From Elusimicrobiota bacterium (lineage in GTDB: Bacteria > Elusimicrobiota > Elusimicrobia > F11), in NCBI GenBank assembly GCA_044221725.1, contig JBGAON010000005.1:32001-96000 (forward strand): 64,000 bases of DNA. The letters are read 5' to 3'. Positions 36,954 through 45,728 of this stretch are shown piece after piece. Positions within the stretch are counted from its first letter, which is position 1; the number at the start of each line of letters is the position of its first letter. Both the position numbers and the translations under genes were made by a program. The notes below the pieces were generated by a model. It saw only the letters and a program-made list of their open reading frames with translations. It searched no databases and was not told the origin of the DNA.

Positions 36954-37072
36954 TGTCGGCATTGTAACATGGACCGATTTGCCTTTCTGAAATTAGATTT
37001 ATTAGAGTGCTCGCCCTTCTCCAACGCCCTCCGTCGGATAACTGTTGTCGATCCCCTTCAAAGGCTGGCATT

Positions 37073-38602
37073 ATGCTTTCTCATGTATTAACCGCTTCGG
37101 TGTACGGTGTGGACGGTTACGCGGTTACCGTCGAAGTCGATTTTCGAGCGGGACTGCCCTCGTTCAATATCGTTGGTTTGCCGGATGCGAGTATTCGCGA
37201 GTCTCGTGAACGGGTTGTTGCGGCGATTAAGAATTCGGGTTTTGTTTTTTCTCCGCAGCGGATCACCGTTAATCTTGCGCCGGCCCATTTAAAAAAGGAA
37301 GGGCCCGCTTTCGATCTGCCAATCGCGATCGGCATCCTTGTGGCCGCGGAAATAATAAGCGCCGATGTTTTGTCGGGGTGTGCGTTCCTCGGGGAGCTCG
37401 GTTTGAATGGGGACCTGCGCGCCATTCGCGGTGTGTTGCCTTGCGCCATCGGCTTGCAGAAAAAAGGTGTTTCCCGGTTGGTGCTACCCGAACGAAATGC
37501 CAACGAGGCAGCGGTTGTTCAAGGGATTGAGGTGCTTCCGTTTCGAACTCTTGCCGAAGTGGTGGCCTATCTCCAGGGCGAGATCAACAAGAATCCGCAT
37601 GAGATCGATCGAGCGAATATTTTCGAGCGCTCGCTGGCCCACAACGTGGATTTTTCTGACGTAAAAGGACAGGTCATCGCAAAGCGCGCGCTGGAAATAG
37701 CGGCTGCCGGAAATCATAACGCGATTCTCGTCGGGCCTCCAGGTTCCGGAAAGACGCTTCTTGCGAGACGATTCCCGAGTATTTTGCCTGACATGGAATT
37801 TGATGAAGCATTGGAAACCACCAAAATTCATTCCGTCGCCGGATTGTTGCGCGAATCCACGCAGCTGGTTGCAACCCGGCCTTTTCGAAGCCCTCATCAC
37901 CAGGTAAGTAATGTTGCCTTGATCGGTGGTGGTAGCAATCCCAAGCCCGGGGAAGTATCGCTGGCTCATCGCGGCGTTTTGTTTCTCGACGAATTTCCAG
38001 AATTTGGCCGAAGCGTTTTGGAGGGTCTGCGGCAACCATTGGAAGACCGTTTCGTTACGATTGCCCGGATTTCAAATTCGGTTCGATACCCATCCGATTT
38101 TTTGCTGCTGGCGGCAGCGAATCCGTGTCCGTGCGGTTATTGGGCCAGTGGTGTGCGGCCGTGCTCCTGTGCGCCGACGCTGGTTCAAAAATACAGGTCG
38201 AAGATGTCGGGGCCGCTTCTGGACCGGATCGATCTTCACGTGGAAGTCCCGGCTCTCAAGCTCGATGAGATTACCGATGCCGAGAGCAGCACCGAAGCAT
38301 CCGCCGCCGTGCGCGAGCGCGTCATTCGCGCGCGTTTGATTCAAAAAAACAGATTCGCGGGCCTTGGAATTTATGAAAATAGCCGAATGTCGGTGCCTCA
38401 TATCAAAATGTTCTGTCGTCTCGATGGAAACGCGAGGAAACTGCTGAAGGATGCTATTCGACGTCTGGGTCTTTCCGCGCGCGCGTACGACCGAATTCTC
38501 AAAGTGTCTCGAACTATCGCGGATCTCGAAGCCCAGCCAGATATAACAGCTGCGAATGTCGCGGAAGCCATTGGATTTCGGTTTTTGGATCGGCCCACAT
38601 GA
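37073..38602 (+). CDS. comM: ComM/YifB Mg-chelatase-like AAA+ helicase
   Basis: IVGLPD..IRESRERV, GPPGSGKT, PFRSPHH, GEVSLAHRGVLFLDE, NPCPCG and SGPLLDRID. Confidence 0.95.
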   Translation: MLSHVLTASVYGVDGYAVTVEVDFRAGLPSFNIVGLPDASIRESRERVVAAIKNSGFVFSPQRITVNLAPAHLKKEGPAFDLPIAIGILVAAEIISADVLSGCAFLGELGLNGDLRAIRGVLPCAIGLQKKGVSRLVLPERNANEAAVVQGIEVLPFRTLAEVVAYLQGEINKNPHEIDRANIFERSLAHNVDFSDVKGQVIAKRALEIAAAGNHNAILVGPPGSGKTLLARRFPSILPDMEFDEALETTKIHSVAGLLRESTQLVATRPFRSPHHQVSNVALIGGGSNPKPGEVSLAHRGVLFLDEFPEFGRSVLEGLRQPLEDRFVTIARISNSVRYPSDFLLLAAANPCPCGYWASGVRPCSCAPTLVQKYRSKMSGPLLDRIDLHVEVPALKLDEITDAESSTEASAAVRERVIRARLIQKNRFAGLGIYENSRMSVPHIKMFCRLDGNARKLLKDAIRRLGLSARAYDRILKVSRTIADLEAQPDITAANVAEAIGFRFLDRPT

Positions 38603-41119: not shown

Positions 41120-41133
41120 TCGTTTTCCATTCT

Positions 41134-41154
41134 CCCCTCCAACCTTAGGAGGGG
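41134..41154 (+). promoter_or_regulatory. Hairpin sequestering the dprA Shine-Dalgarno
   Basis: CCCCTCC-AACCTTA-GGAGGGG, ending 4 nt before the ATG. Confidence 0.6.
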
Positions 41155-41158
41155 TCTT

Positions 41159-42265
41159 ATGTTCACAGAAGAAGTATATGCGTCGTTGCTGTTAAACAGC
41201 ATTCCCGAAATTGGGCCGAAGCGGTTTCAATCATTAATCGAAATTTTTGGATCCGCACACTCCGCGCTCAAAGCGCGTGCAACAAATTGGCGATCGGTTC
41301 CATTTTTCGAACAACACATTCTTGAGAAAATAGAAAGTCAGTTTGTCGATATTCAACGCGCGGCTGAGAATGATCTCGAAGTCGTCAACCGATCCGGTGT
41401 TAAAGTGTTTCTGGCGCATCAAGGGGATTACCCGGCGCTTTTGAAACAGACGGTAAACCCTCCGCCGGTTCTGTACGTAAAAGGAGCCGATATCTTAGCT
41501 CAGCAGCCTGCGATAGCAATGGTGGGAAGTCGGCGGTGCAGTTATTACGGCGAAAAAATGGCGACGACGCTGGCGGGCGATCTCAGTGCTTTTGGCATCA
41601 CGACCATCAGCGGCCTTGCCCGTGGAATTGATACGTTTGCGCATCGCGCTTCCCTGGCCGCCGGCGGAGAGACATGGGCTGTAATTGGCGCGGGCCTTTC
41701 TCGAATCTATCCTCCGGAAAACAGCAATCTGGCGGCTGAGATAGAGAAGCGCGGGGCGATTATTAGCGAGTTCCCGATGGCGACGCGCCCGCTTCCTGCT
41801 AATTTTCCCCGCCGAAATAGAGTAATTGCCGGTTTCGCTCAGGCAACGATTGTGATTGAAGGCACCGCGCGGAGCGGCTCGCTGATCACCGCGCGGCTTG
41901 CGGCCGAACAGGGCCGCGATGTTTTTGCAGTTCCGGGTCCCGTCACGTCGCCACTTAGCGAAGCGCCGCATCAATTGCTGCAGATGGGAGCCGCGATGGC
42001 GGTTTCGGCGGAACAAGTGCTTCGCGATTTGGGAATTTCGGTTCAAAAGCAAGCCGCGATGGCCATCGATAAAAGGACCGGGGACGCGAGGCATTCCGAA
42101 ACTTTTCGACGGGTTCTTTCGTTTCTCGGAGAAGAAACGGTGCCGCGAGAAATTTTGGCGCAGAAGTTGAATTGCACGACAAGTCAGCTATCCTCCTTAT
42201 TATTACAGATGGAAATGGCTGGAATTATCCGATCGGTTCCGGGCGGAGGCGTGCTTAAATCTTGA
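41159..42265 (+). CDS. dprA: DNA-processing protein DprA
   Basis: AMVGSR, SGLARGID, FPRRNRVIAG, SGSLITA and GRDVFAVPG. Confidence 0.96.
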   Translation: MFTEEVYASLLLNSIPEIGPKRFQSLIEIFGSAHSALKARATNWRSVPFFEQHILEKIESQFVDIQRAAENDLEVVNRSGVKVFLAHQGDYPALLKQTVNPPPVLYVKGADILAQQPAIAMVGSRRCSYYGEKMATTLAGDLSAFGITTISGLARGIDTFAHRASLAAGGETWAVIGAGLSRIYPPENSNLAAEIEKRGAIISEFPMATRPLPANFPRRNRVIAGFAQATIVIEGTARSGSLITARLAAEQGRDVFAVPGPVTSPLSEAPHQLLQMGAAMAVSAEQVLRDLGISVQKQAAMAIDKRTGDARHSETFRRVLSFLGEETVPREILAQKLNCTTSQLSSLLLQMEMAGIIRSVPGGGVLKS

Positions 42266-42289: not shown

Positions 42290-44452
42290 ATGGAAGCGTT
42301 AGTAATAGTCGAATCTCCTACCAAAGAACGAACCATTGGTAAATTTTTGTCGAAAAAATTTACCGTGAGAAGTTCCTATGGTCATGTTCGTGATCTGCCA
42401 CAGCGAAAACTTGGGGTGGATATTGATCATGAATTCGAGCCGAGCTACGTCATTCTTCCACGCGCAAAGAAATTATTGCCCGAACTGAACAAGTCGGCCA
42501 AACAGGTGAAAACAATTTTCTTAGCGACGGACTACGACCGCGAAGGGGAAGCCATCGCGTGGCACTTGGCGCAGATGTTGAAAGTCCCCGAAGAGAAACT
42601 TAAACGAATAACCTTCCATGAAATTACGCCGGATGCGATCAAGGCTGCTCTGGCGAGCCCCCGAGAATTGGACCCGCATTTGGTGGACGCACAGGTAGCA
42701 CGGCGCGTGCTTGATCGGCTTGTGGGTTACAAGCTCTCTCCTCTTTTGTGGCGAAAAGTAAAGCGAGGGTTATCCGCGGGCCGCGTTCAATCTGTCGCGG
42801 TACGAATTATTTGTCAACGCGAAACCGAGATCGAAAAGTTTGTTCCGCAGGAATATTGGACTCTCGGCGTGCAGCTTGAAAAGGGAAGTCATCCGCCGTT
42901 TTGGGCTCACATTCATTCTAAAGGATCGCACAAGTTTGGTCGCCTCGAACTGAGCTCCAAAGAAGCGGTCGATAAAATTTTAGCGGAACTCGAATCCGCC
43001 ACATACGAAGTTGCGAAAGTAGAATCAAAAGAACGGCGCCGCCAGCCGCCGGCACCGTTCACTACCGCGGCGTTGCAACAAGAGGCGTCCCATCGTCTCG
43101 GTTTCCGCGCGCAGCGCACCATGATTGTTGCTCAACAGTTATATGAAGGTCTCGCGCTGGCCAACGGAGAAACGGTCGGACTTATAACCTACATGCGCAC
43201 CGATTCCACGTTCGTGGCGAAGACGGCCCAGGACGAGGCGGCGAAGTACATTCAAGGTAAATTTGGGAAAGAATTGTTGCCGGCGAAGTTTCGTGTTTTT
43301 AAGACAAAGGCCAAAGGCGCCCAGGAAGCTCATGAGGCAATCCGTCCGACCTCGGTGTTTCGTGATCCCGAGAGCGTGAAAGATTACTTAACGCCCGAGC
43401 AGCTACGACTATATAAATTGATCTGGGAGCGTTTTGTTGGCAGTCAAATGACCGATGCGCTGTACGATACGTTGACCGTGGATATTTCCGCAAAACCGTC
43501 TGACATAATTTTCCGCGCCAACGGGCGCACCCTAAAGTTTCCGGGTTTTCTCATTCTCCAGGGAAAAGAATCGACGCCAGAATCTGAAGCCCCGAAAGAA
43601 GAGGACGACGATTCGCAAATTGCCGCGTTACCGCCGTTGGCAGTGTCCGATCAATTAAAGAAGAAAAGCCTCAAGCCCGAACAGCATTTTACGGAGCCGC
43701 CGCCGCGATTTAACGAAGCAAGTCTCGTTAAGACCATGGAGGAGTTGGGCATTGGGCGACCATCGACATACGCTCCTATTATCCAGACAATCTTGGCTCG
43801 CGGCTACGTTCGTTTTGATGAAAGGCGTTTTATCCCGACGGAACTCGGAAAAACGGTCGATCAACAACTCGTCGATAATTTTTCGGAAATCGTCGATGTA
43901 AATTTTACAGCGGGCATGGAGAACATGCTCGATGCGGTGGCCGATGGAAAAGCAAAATGGCAATCCGTAATTCGGAATTTCTGGACGCCGTTTTCAAAAA
44001 AATTATCAACGGCCGAAACCGACATGAAAGTCACGAAGCCGAAAGTTCAAGAGACCGACGTGAAATGCGAGAAATGCGGTGCCATGATGGTTATTCGCGA
44101 GAGTCGCTTCGGAAAATTTCTCGCGTGCTCCACGTATCCAACGTGTAATTACAAAGCATCGCTCGACAAAGAAGGCAATGTTGTAAAGCCTCAAGAAACC
44201 GGAGAAGCCTGCCCGGATTGCGGGAAGCCGATCGTTCAGCGAATGGGGCGACGCGGAAAATTCCTCGCTTGCTCGGGATACCCGAATTGCAAATTTACGC
44301 GATCAATCGCTACGGAGAAAGTTGCGCCGCAGCCCACCGGAGAAAAGTGCGAAAATTGTGGAAAAGATATGGTCATGAAGCGTGGTCGTTTCGGCGAATT
44401 CATGGCGTGCTCCGGTTACCCCACCTGTAAAACAATAAAGAAAGCTGCTTAG
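42290..44452 (+). CDS. topA: DNA topoisomerase I with three Zn ribbons
   Basis: IVESPTK, ATDYDREGE, SAGRVQS, LITYMRTDS and GIGRPSTYA. Confidence 0.98.
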   Translation: MEALVIVESPTKERTIGKFLSKKFTVRSSYGHVRDLPQRKLGVDIDHEFEPSYVILPRAKKLLPELNKSAKQVKTIFLATDYDREGEAIAWHLAQMLKVPEEKLKRITFHEITPDAIKAALASPRELDPHLVDAQVARRVLDRLVGYKLSPLLWRKVKRGLSAGRVQSVAVRIICQRETEIEKFVPQEYWTLGVQLEKGSHPPFWAHIHSKGSHKFGRLELSSKEAVDKILAELESATYEVAKVESKERRRQPPAPFTTAALQQEASHRLGFRAQRTMIVAQQLYEGLALANGETVGLITYMRTDSTFVAKTAQDEAAKYIQGKFGKELLPAKFRVFKTKAKGAQEAHEAIRPTSVFRDPESVKDYLTPEQLRLYKLIWERFVGSQMTDALYDTLTVDISAKPSDIIFRANGRTLKFPGFLILQGKESTPESEAPKEEDDDSQIAALPPLAVSDQLKKKSLKPEQHFTEPPPRFNEASLVKTMEELGIGRPSTYAPIIQTILARGYVRFDERRFIPTELGKTVDQQLVDNFSEIVDVNFTAGMENMLDAVADGKAKWQSVIRNFWTPFSKKLSTAETDMKVTKPKVQETDVKCEKCGAMMVIRESRFGKFLACSTYPTCNYKASLDKEGNVVKPQETGEACPDCGKPIVQRMGRRGKFLACSGYPNCKFTRSIATEKVAPQPTGEKCENCGKDMVMKRGRFGEFMACSGYPTCKTIKKAA

Positions 44453-44457
44453 GGCTT

Positions 44458-44495
44458 GCCCTCCGTAGCTCGAACGAAGTGAGAGCGTAGGAGGG
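44458..44495. repeat. Short palindrome after topA
   Basis: CCCTCC-GTA-GCTC...GAGC-GTA-GGAGGG imperfect hairpin. Confidence 0.55.
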
Positions 44496-44569
44496 AAAAA
44501 ACGAAGGGCCCACCGCCGTCCCCTCCAACGTGGTGAGCCCTTGTACCTGTCAAAGACGTCTTAACAAGT
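44496..44569 (-). ncRNA. Candidate ~74-nt small RNA
   Basis: Minus strand shows a TATAGT -10 box (44581-44576), two stem-loops whose G-U pairs work only on this strand, and a U6 tail. The loop is complementary to the dprA and comM leaders. Confidence 0.5.
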
Positions 44570-44650
44570 GCGCACACTATAGCGCGAAGAGCCTGCGTCC
44601 AATGTCAGCTGTGTGTAAGTTAATTGTAAATTCTTCGACGGAAAAACCAA

Positions 44651-45361
44651 TTAAGAGTCCCGACGGAGCGCTTCGTTCTCGTCGATTTTTGGGGGGCGGA
44701 ACTGCGGTTTGATCGGATTTTTGTAGGTGGTTTTATCGAGCAGCCCCGCCAATAGAAAGGCACGGCGTCGCTCAGCGCATTTGTTGCATACGCCGCAATG
44801 GATATGGCCCTGCGGGTTAATGCACGAAAACGAATATTGCAGCGGCAGTTGCTGGTATCGTCTAAGAATCTGTGTTTTTGTGAAATTTCGGAAGGGCGAG
44901 ATAACTTTTATTTTTTTCCGAAAACTTTTTTGGAGTAGTTTTTCCATCGTGTGAAAGTAGGCGGGTGTGGCATCCGGAAATGGATTTCCTTTCAGTGTGC
45001 CGATGGCAATCTCCCACACATTTTTTGGCGAGAGGGCGAGAAGTGCTTTAACAGTGAGCAGAAGATTTCTTGCCGGCAAAAAAACTTCCTTGTCGTCGCT
45101 TGTGGCATTGGGCGTGTGGCCGCGTTGGCTCCAATTGCTTTTGTACGCCCCTTCCAAAAGCAATCGAATGGGGAGAATTGGTTTTACGCGGTTAGAGCGA
45201 AGCGATCGAAGAAATCGTTTTGCCCAGTATTTCTCTGTTTTTTCCCAGGGGAGTTTGCACGAAACATACACGGGGAAAACCGTGTAATTTTTTTCCACCA
45301 AATGGCCCACGAGCGTGGCGCTATCGAGACCGCCGGAGTACAGGACTCCGATTTTTCTCAA
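44651..45361 (-). CDS. queC: 7-cyano-7-deazaguanine synthase
   Basis: LYSGGLDS, PARN, TK..I, and SC...HCG.C..C.ERR; TTG start after GGTGA. Confidence 0.88.
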   Translation of the reverse strand: MRKIGVLYSGGLDSATLVGHLVEKNYTVFPVYVSCKLPWEKTEKYWAKRFLRSLRSNRVKPILPIRLLLEGAYKSNWSQRGHTPNATSDDKEVFLPARNLLLTVKALLALSPKNVWEIAIGTLKGNPFPDATPAYFHTMEKLLQKSFRKKIKVISPFRNFTKTQILRRYQQLPLQYSFSCINPQGHIHCGVCNKCAERRRAFLLAGLLDKTTYKNPIKPQFRPPKIDENEALRRDS

Positions 45362-45371
45362 GGCGTCACCG

Positions 45372-45728
45372 TCATGATCGTCTTCGCGTGATGCATGCTC
45401 CGATCCCCGCAATATCGGCAAACACTTTCTTGGAGGCTTTCACTTCAACGGCATCGATCCGTTTGTCGGAAAGAACAATTTCGGCAATTCTTTCGGCAAG
45501 CGTTTCGACGAGAAAAAAAGTCTCCGATTTTGTTGTTTCCTTGATATGGGAGACGATCGCTGCGTAGTCGACGGTGTCCTTGATGTTGTCGGTTTTGGCC
45601 GGCTTTTCGAGAGGAAGAAATAGTTTTAGGCAAACGGTTACGATTTGTGGGAACGCCTTTTCCTCGTCGGTAATTCCGATTCTGCACGGAACTTGGAAGT
45701 CTTCGATGAACAAAAAATCACTGGACAT
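45372..45728 (-). CDS. folB: Dihydroneopterin aldolase
   Basis: IG...EE...PQ, D.IKDTVDY and LVETLAERIA. Confidence 0.9.
   Translation of the reverse strand: MSSDFLFIEDFQVPCRIGITDEEKAFPQIVTVCLKLFLPLEKPAKTDNIKDTVDYAAIVSHIKETTKSETFFLVETLAERIAEIVLSDKRIDAVEVKASKKVFADIAGIGACITRRRS

Follow-up and report, generated by a model that had tools for sequence, protein, structure and literature searches.

Between topA and queC, in a genome of an uncultured bacterial family, a short element on the minus strand raises the question of whether a small RNA (sRNA) governs natural transformation in this lineage and, if so, in which direction. The element lies in a stretch of 64,000 nucleotides (nt), hereafter the window, from an Elusimicrobiota bacterium (GenBank assembly GCA_044221725.1, contig JBGAON010000005.1, positions 32,001 to 96,000). 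A preliminary description of its sequence had proposed a riboregulator of natural transformation that pairs with the leaders of the competence genes dprA and comM. Comparison of the window's genome (G000) with relatives of the same family (G001-G011, 12 genomes in all) supports this proposal at the level of sequence prediction, through conservation of the RNA loop, enrichment of its pairing sites in competence leaders and the occurrence of such sites before comEC and comF; the predicted target set is wider than had been seen. The reading favoured here is that a family-wide trans-acting sRNA controls natural transformation and DNA-recombination genes post-transcriptionally, most likely by silencing. 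Belief and doubt are about evenly balanced for this reading as a whole, and its two central steps, exposure of the loop and pairing with leader sites, are highly probable on comparative grounds.

A conserved sRNA gene with an invariant loop

The RNA is predicted to fold into two stem-loops, the second of which serves as the terminator and carries the pairing sequence. Its parts are the following:

44496..44569, minus strand: sRNA gene of about 74 nt, recognized by fold and conservation, with its 5' end placed from the -10 box
44519..44526, minus strand: invariant seed GGAGGGGA, with GGAGGG predicted unpaired (alignment and folding)
44504..44542, minus strand: SL2, the terminator stem that also presents the seed
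44546..44569, minus strand: SL1, the 5' stem-loop, variable in sequence and length among copies (folding and copy comparison)
44496..44501, minus strand: U-tail, U6
44576..44581, minus strand: -10 box TATAGT
44603..44630, minus strand: three direct repeats TTTACA, CTTACA and CTGACA with an 11-bp period, present in 17 of 17 copies

The predicted fold (-33.3 kcal/mol, z -4.8) was equalled by none of 200 shuffled sequences. Homologues were found in four relatives by DNA search, and models built from them retrieved 17 loop-bearing copies in 10 of the 12 family genomes, with two copies in G000 (the second at C5:463401-463475), G005, G006 and G010 and four in G007, that is, two to four in five of the ten carriers. 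The expectation that the loop would be conserved in relatives was borne out, GGAGGGGA being identical in all 15 aligned copies. Changes on both sides occur in 12 of the 15 pairs of the SL2 stem, a number reached by none of 500 shuffles in a test inflated by the kinship of the genomes, and slid controls scored far lower. The genes flanking the copies differ between genera, and the neighbourhoods are many. The earlier statement that the regulator is encoded next to its targets applies only to the genus of the window, in which a copy adjoins dprA, and to one metagenome contig, where an independent copy beside topA occurs together with a dprA site. One promoter geometry is common to all 17 copies across these varied contexts, so the RNA is not a product of the queC 3' untranslated region, an origin for which the preliminary description had allowed. 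Judged by this comparative evidence, the sRNA is a real, free-standing conserved gene. The -10 box (44581-44576), the RNA (44569-44496), its two stem-loops and the U6 tail were all where they had been placed, and the neighbouring products were identified as DprA, ComM/YifB, TopA and QueC, as originally named.

Model searches found no copy in G004 (96% complete) or G011 (71% complete). None was found in 29 class-level relatives, and 149 other genomes of the phylum, with 31 candidates scored per genome, yielded only three weak matches, which are terminators without the loop. A pattern scan of GTDB gave 98 stretches; among the 80 of them that were scored, four exceed 45 bits, three from Elusimicrobiota and one from Candidatus Obscuribacterium magneticum. 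The available part of a preprint on the latter places it in family fen_1177, order F11, class Elusimicrobia, and contains no mention of an sRNA or of competence (10.1101/2022.07.08.499144); we infer that fen_1177 is the family of the window's genome. A search for mobile copies of the RocRp kind in viral contigs gave 37 pattern matches, none above 20 bits. Rfam 15 returned no family at gathering scores or at E values up to 10, except for one chance match, and a simple promoter and terminator scan called neither the promoter nor the terminator of the sRNA.

Type II toxin-antitoxin modules lie between tandem sRNA copies, each with its promoter, in G005 (L363:771-1634; copies of 131 bp at 86%, around an RHH-ParE module adjoined by BrnT-CopG) and in G007 (L376:235-1162; copies of 143 bp at 99%, around HigBA). 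By analogy with csRNA3, which the available text of PMC9764711 describes as an insertion hotspot for a prophage, the sRNA gene may be an insertion hotspot. In G002, two terminator-like hairpins (L377:210-275 and L384) bear a related loop, GGTTAGGGG, and are possibly another sRNA family or diverged paralogues. In the window, a hairpin resembling a repetitive extragenic palindrome (REP), with CCCTCC/GGAGGG arms, lies between the topA stop and the sRNA U-tail (44459-44495); it was not seen in two congeners with the same gene order.

Predicted target genes

The predicted targets in the window are comM and dprA, listed here with their leader sites and, at the end, the two genes that enclose the sRNA gene:

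37016..37026, plus strand: comM leader site 1
37027..37032, plus strand: comM leader site 2 (CCCUCC)
37052..37061, plus strand: comM leader site 3, adjoining the start region
37073..38602, plus strand: comM, encoding a YifB-family ATPase, predicted target
41133..41143, plus strand: dprA leader site UCCCCUCC(AAC), forming the 5' arm of a hairpin that covers the Shine-Dalgarno (SD) sequence
41148..41154, plus strand: dprA SD GGAGGGG, predicted to pair with the site
41159..42265, plus strand: dprA, predicted target
42290..44452, plus strand: topA, convergent neighbour of the sRNA gene
44651..45421, minus strand: queC-like gene, upstream on the strand of the sRNA, context only

The dprA site and both comM sites that had been reported are present, and a third comM site, CCCTCC at 37027-37032, had been missed. 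The sequence TCCCCTCCAAC (41133-41143) occurs twice in the 2.82-Mb genome when both strands are counted, in the RNA gene and in the dprA leader. Among the 2172 called genes of G000, ranked on our own gene calls with imperfect starts, only comM has three leader sites and dprA is second by duplex energy; 16 leaders, that of comEC among them, have at least two sites, and CCCCTCCAAC has five copies in the genome, one of them before comF. Net binding is predicted to be favourable in all 12 of the G000 leaders tried (-5 to -18 kcal/mol). Sites were also found before genes for a probable Flp pilin (a call resting on a Pfam E value of 0.034 only), a Y1 transposase, ORF6N, DUF559 and Dam, of which ORF6N is the only one seen with sites in relatives (2/2).

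For the family-wide counts, a site was defined by a pairing score of at least 6.5 to the invariant octamer within positions -60 to -1. By this measure 32 of 38 core leaders bear a site (dprA 8/9, comM 9/9, comEC 9/11, comF 6/9), compared with 19 of 135 leaders of other family genes from the same loci, 3 of 52 orthologues in other families and 168 of 2173 leaders genome-wide, and the contrast also holds at thresholds of 6 and 7. The preliminary description had made its proposal depend on sites being commoner in competence leaders and had named comEC and comF beforehand among the genes whose enrichment would support it; these counts agree with it on both points. Leaders cut off by the end of a contig, or belonging to genes whose match started only after some 25 residues, were dropped (intI 2/7, tadA 6/12, outgroup dprA 5/21, outgroup comF 3/18), together with two split comM without a locus.

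A further group, intI, recQ, tadA, recF and tadE, was selected on the strength of sites in G000 and afterwards checked in relatives. The integron integrase gene intI (TIGR02249) has a site in 5 of 5 leaders, G000 included, four of them with at least two, and sites reaching a score of 6.5 occur before recQ in 5 of 8 and before tadA in 4 of 6 cases. At a score of 6, recF leaders have a site in 5 of 6 cases; tadE, detected in 4 relatives among 8 loci searched, has one in 3 of them and in G000 as well. A weak conserved site near the 5' end was detected for recA, a gene meant as a control and not used as one, in 10 of 12 genomes. topA is not regarded as a target because its leader has a site in just 1 of 8 relatives, and the leaders of the other pilus-type ATPases of the genome show no clear site. 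In Liberibacter crescens, DNA is taken up by means of Tad pili according to the available part of PMC8513845, and by analogy a link between Tad and DNA uptake is plausible here.

Several observations on individual leaders and genes were made. In the recA leaders (L344-L355), TTTCCCTCG stands a few bases after the -10 box in 12 of 12 genomes by eye, in 10 of them within -60, and may be either a weak site or an independent operator. The comF gene of G000 (C4:349855, L152) has an apparent CTG start behind an SD-hiding hairpin, where the codon in relatives is ATG or TTG. In G001 (L114), comEC, whose own leader lacks a site, comes directly after an ORF6N gene that has three, and intI, ORF6N and comEC lie together on one contig in G007 (L122/L322). 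comM is split after residue 220 in G002 (C5:147077, C4:38752) and in G007 (C5:17211), which suggests the insertion of an element. G007, which has four sRNA copies, gave no dprA match though 99% complete.

The leader motif and the RNA loop

The most enriched C/U 7-mer of the leaders is CCCCUCC, the exact complement of the loop, which occurs in 22 of 43 leaders (dprA, comM, comEC, comF and intI) versus 3 of 135 and differs from the 16S tail, ACCUCCU. Its 5' CC is unexplained by the SD of the gene itself in 25 of 53 cores versus 14 of 94 genome-wide, and the sites are confined to the sense strand (27 versus 0 of 57 leaders). On these comparisons, the leader motif is a match to the RNA loop and not merely to an SD. 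The 11-nt apical pairing first proposed for dprA has to be shortened: the 11-mer is present in its leader, but only GGAGGGGA is invariant and the conserved seed measures 6-8 nt. The loop-flanking base does not covary with the targets (19/60, permutation mean 18.1, p 0.44), so that the 11-nt duplex appears to be particular to this genome; moreover, only GGAGGG is predicted unpaired, and the 11-nt pairing would therefore need the apical stem to open.

In a distant soil lineage, TTTCCCTCTCG or TCCCCTTC stands just before the dprA start (L419, L427, L428, L432, L433, L439, L442, L469, L473, L477 and others). This lineage may have a loop RNA of its own.

Promoter and upstream control

All 17 copies are preceded by three (C/T)TTACA- or (C/T)TGACA-like repeats with an 11-bp period, the -10 hexamer following 21 nt after the third; the register of the repeats is a best fit, some of them being degenerate. 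The triple-repeat promoter is also found before the metagenome copy, and the sRNA promoter has no consensus -35 at normal spacing. The triple repeat resembles OmpR-family operators and is probably the operator of a response regulator, which could not be picked out among the nine OmpR-type proteins of G000. The best G000 matches to the sRNA promoter profile are both sRNA genes together with four from an outer-membrane cluster (C5:578-595 kb). A LexA replacement by the sRNA was considered and rejected, LexA being present in 5 of 5 genomes.

Many promoters of that cluster (C5:570595-604739) bear the same TTACA repeats, and its genes encode a type II secretion operon, an autotransporter, a beta-barrel, a trypsin-like protease, a transglutaminase-like protein and a histidine kinase. 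At C2:219210-273230 of the same genome, an open reading frame of 18,006 codons stands behind a TTACA repeat promoter, and after it comes an OmpR-type regulator gene on the opposite strand. In the promoter scan, giant genes proved to have the first two repeats and the -10 position in common with the sRNA promoter, the third repeat being mostly different; control by one regulator is therefore possible.

Proposed mechanism and direction of control

In the mechanism proposed here, a response regulator would bind the three 11-bp repeats and turn on the sRNA gene or genes, and the RNA would fold with GGAGGG exposed atop the terminator stem, a step supported by covariation. Each target leader offers one to three sites resembling CCCCUCC, with which the loop would then pair; the predicted targets are dprA, comM, comEC, comF, genes of the Tad operon (tadE, tadA and probably flp), intI, recQ, recF and, weakly, recA. 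The duplex, in or beside the ribosome footprint, would block initiation, and genes located in housekeeping operons (dprA before topA, recF after dnaN) would be quieted with the operon still on. Given exposure and pairing of the loop, silencing is somewhat the likelier outcome. It is preferred because an RNA bound near the start can only block, because occlusion covers every leader and because RocR and the csRNAs offer precedents, and partly because exposed, SD-less sites lie against start codons. The 55 site-bearing leaders divide into 24 that pair the site with the SD, 5 that pair it with the coding start and 26 that are predicted open, and in 18 of the last group the site ends at most 15 nt from the start codon. 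Site-bearing leaders without an SD are those of recF (G000, G001, G003, G008), comEC (G003, G005, G008), comF (G008) and tadE (G007). Folding calculations cannot settle steric effects.

A number of observations weigh against regulation by silencing or against the regulon itself. A seed that resembles an SD is ill suited to a repressor. The 24 leaders in which the site is paired with the SD include 7 of 8 for dprA and 4 of 5 for intI, and opening dprA leaders costs 12.7 kcal/mol versus 5.2 in other families, so that their ON state would be held down and the site hidden. The absence of covariation at the loop-flanking base belongs here as well, and the Fisher p-values of the site counts (1e-11 to 1e-16) overstate the contrast, the genomes being kin. 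Of 36 G000 genes chosen by site score, 26 are unrelated or unknown, single sites occur often, and the most favourable duplex in the genome is that of an aldo-keto reductase. G004, at 96% completeness, retains sites and yielded no RNA copy, and C/U-rich sites occur in 22 of 71 distant metagenome dprA leaders, many of them near-duplicates. Finally, no discrete transcript could be seen in RNA data: four RNA runs of one study match part of the stretch, and the contigs from the three low-depth runs examined, plus one run of unknown kind, are scattered at a depth of 2-10 (one spans the promoter, 44508-44731) and carry neither strand nor ends, which makes them uninformative on this point.

The opposite direction, activation, appears rather unlikely. 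It would require leaders locked by anti-SD hairpins, in which the SD-like loop captures the anti-SD strand so that the ribosome site is released, in the manner of TfoR and with many targets. One key for many such locks needs an SD-mimic seed, and site-bearing start regions do cost more to open (9.0 kcal/mol versus 7.2 in other family genes and 6.5 in orthologues elsewhere), the cost with sites blocked being 5.7 kcal/mol and the drop at least 1.5 in 35 of 50 leaders. GGAG-type SDs are more frequent in target leaders (28/57) than in other family leaders (35/135) or orthologues elsewhere (8/52), and dprA leaders carry GGAGGG in 5 of 9 cases versus 37 of 2173 across the genome; the extension matches the site and not the 16S tail. 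The promoter looks signal-induced, since it has no consensus -35 at normal spacing, and the exposure of the tfoX SD by TfoR gives a precedent in the available text of PMC3903286. However, pairing to the SD follows automatically from the seed sequence, and when leader halves were swapped between species the locks were not weakened (native stronger in 16 of 39); co-evolved locks, including a dprA covariation noticed by eye, are not claimed in view of this negative test. Furthermore, an SD is absent from 11 of the 50 site-bearing leaders, and in 23 of 50 the site ends at most 15 nt from the start, where a bound RNA should block and not free. A specific form of activation, entertained tentatively, is an SD-mimic master key: a signal-induced RNA, one loop of which would open the anti-SD locks of a whole regulon (Tad pilus, ComEC/ComF, DprA, ComM, RecQ, integron integrase and perhaps Y1 transposases) without a known RNA chaperone. 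It is improbable that both directions operate, the RNA unlocking SD-locked dprA, intI, comM and recQ and blocking SD-less recF and comEC, for example to hand RecA loading from RecF to DprA. The distribution of SD locks (19/28 in the first four genes versus 4/22 in comEC, comF and tadA and 1/5 in recF) agrees with such a division, but it may merely mirror SD strength, lowered comEC with raised dprA is hard to fit to one pathway, and both architectures are found among orthologous comEC and comF leaders.

Two further readings dispense with regulation in trans. Risky genes are often weakly translated, and the sites could be cis dampers, either anti-SD or pyrimidine tracts, the RNA having an unrelated job such as protein binding via its GGA loop or the sponging of C-rich RNA. 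The distant dprA leaders and G004 described above would fit this quite improbable reading, against which stand the agreement of CCCCUCC with the loop and neither with the SD consensus nor with the gene's own SD, the confinement of RNA and sites to one shared lineage, and the presence of extra exposed sites and of sites in SD-less leaders without a cis partner. A CsrA motif was also absent in six frames, a weak test. That the element is no RNA gene at all, but a terminator, a REP- or attC-like repeat, the queC 3' untranslated region, a peptide leader or a DNA-binding motif, is very improbable: the tandem copies around toxin-antitoxin modules (G005, G007) and a start codon after the SD-like loop in 12 of 18 copies speak for it, whereas the promoter geometry is fixed in 17 of 17 copies, the invariant loop stands on a covarying stem in one to four copies per genome, and the leader sites are sense-only and irregularly spaced. 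The peptide reading was rejected, as neither frame nor spacing after the loop is conserved.

Relationship to known systems

The published sRNAs are compared here as the available portions of the papers cited describe them. RocR represses comEA, comEC, comF, comM and radC (PMC6744872), and the RocR/RocRp RNAs of Legionella, which work with RocC, are likewise sRNAs of about 70 nt with stem-loops and an intrinsic terminator that act on the leaders of several transformation genes (PMC6744872; PMC9674577). comEC, comF and comM are common targets, with sites here in 9/11, 6/9 and 9/9 leaders, respectively; comEA (HHH_3, PF12836) and radC (PF04002) gave no match in G000. Unlike in RocR, the predicted targets add dprA, Tad genes, intI, recQ and recF, the seed mimics an SD and sits on the terminator stem, and sibling copies stand under a repeat operator. 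No ProQ/FinO protein of the RocC type (PF04352) was found in G000 (94% complete), the only genome searched, the E. coli control being positive. The analogy with RocR drawn in the preliminary description thus holds for size and target set, and the repression that it implied is only the likelier of two directions. The csRNAs of Streptococcus, which repress comC under CiaR (PMC4507080), share sibling sRNAs, direct repeats with an 11-bp period and a tie to competence (PMC8186281; PMC4507080). However, the CiaR box reads TTTAAG-N5-TTTAAG, in contrast to the three (C/T)TTACA or (C/T)TGACA repeats, and the csRNAs pair across the region from SD to start of a pheromone gene, comC, whereas here an SD-like seed meets C-rich sites upstream in machinery genes. 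The sRNA is probably a member of neither the RocR nor the csRNA family.

TfoR of Vibrio cholerae, likewise an sRNA of competence, acts by way of a hairpin that hides the SD (PMC3903286), as predicted here for 24 of 55 leaders and not for the 26 open ones, but it has a single target, tfoX, and depends on Hfq, in contrast to many structural targets and no chaperone found. The targets predicted here are machinery and recombination genes and not tfoX, which was itself not searched for. An LSM search for Hfq found no match, the E. coli control being missed too, and an Hfq motif gave two matches, only in stop-ridden frames. Arp of Acinetobacter baumannii also limits DNA uptake, via pilin translation (PMC12338739), but masks the SD together with 17 codons of a single type IV pilin, unlike the short loop seed and the Tad pilus considered here. 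GsrN of Caulobacter is similarly restricted to a family, its most conserved part being a leader-pairing loop seed (PMC5869019), but its loop is C-rich and its targets G-rich, the opposite polarity, and its regulon is one of stress. No report of the present RNA was met in the literature searched, which covered few subscription papers and excluded the supplements of non-coding RNA motif surveys.

Implications for the family

The control of competence is unknown in most bacteria, and for this uncultured Elusimicrobiota family the analysis provides a regulon defined by sequence. It suggests a single RNA switch for the timing of foreign-DNA uptake. Were the RNA to activate, it would use an SD mimic to turn on many targets, an arrangement for which the literature searched offered no precedent, and under the master-key form DNA uptake and the enzymes that rearrange single-stranded DNA would be translated together. 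The regulon, if true, would also couple competence and the integron integrase through translation, a link that the available part of an integron review draws only through SOS and CRP (PMC8876359), and it would point to the Tad pilus as the structure by which the lineage probably takes up DNA. In either direction, it would represent an independent origin of sRNA control over transformation.
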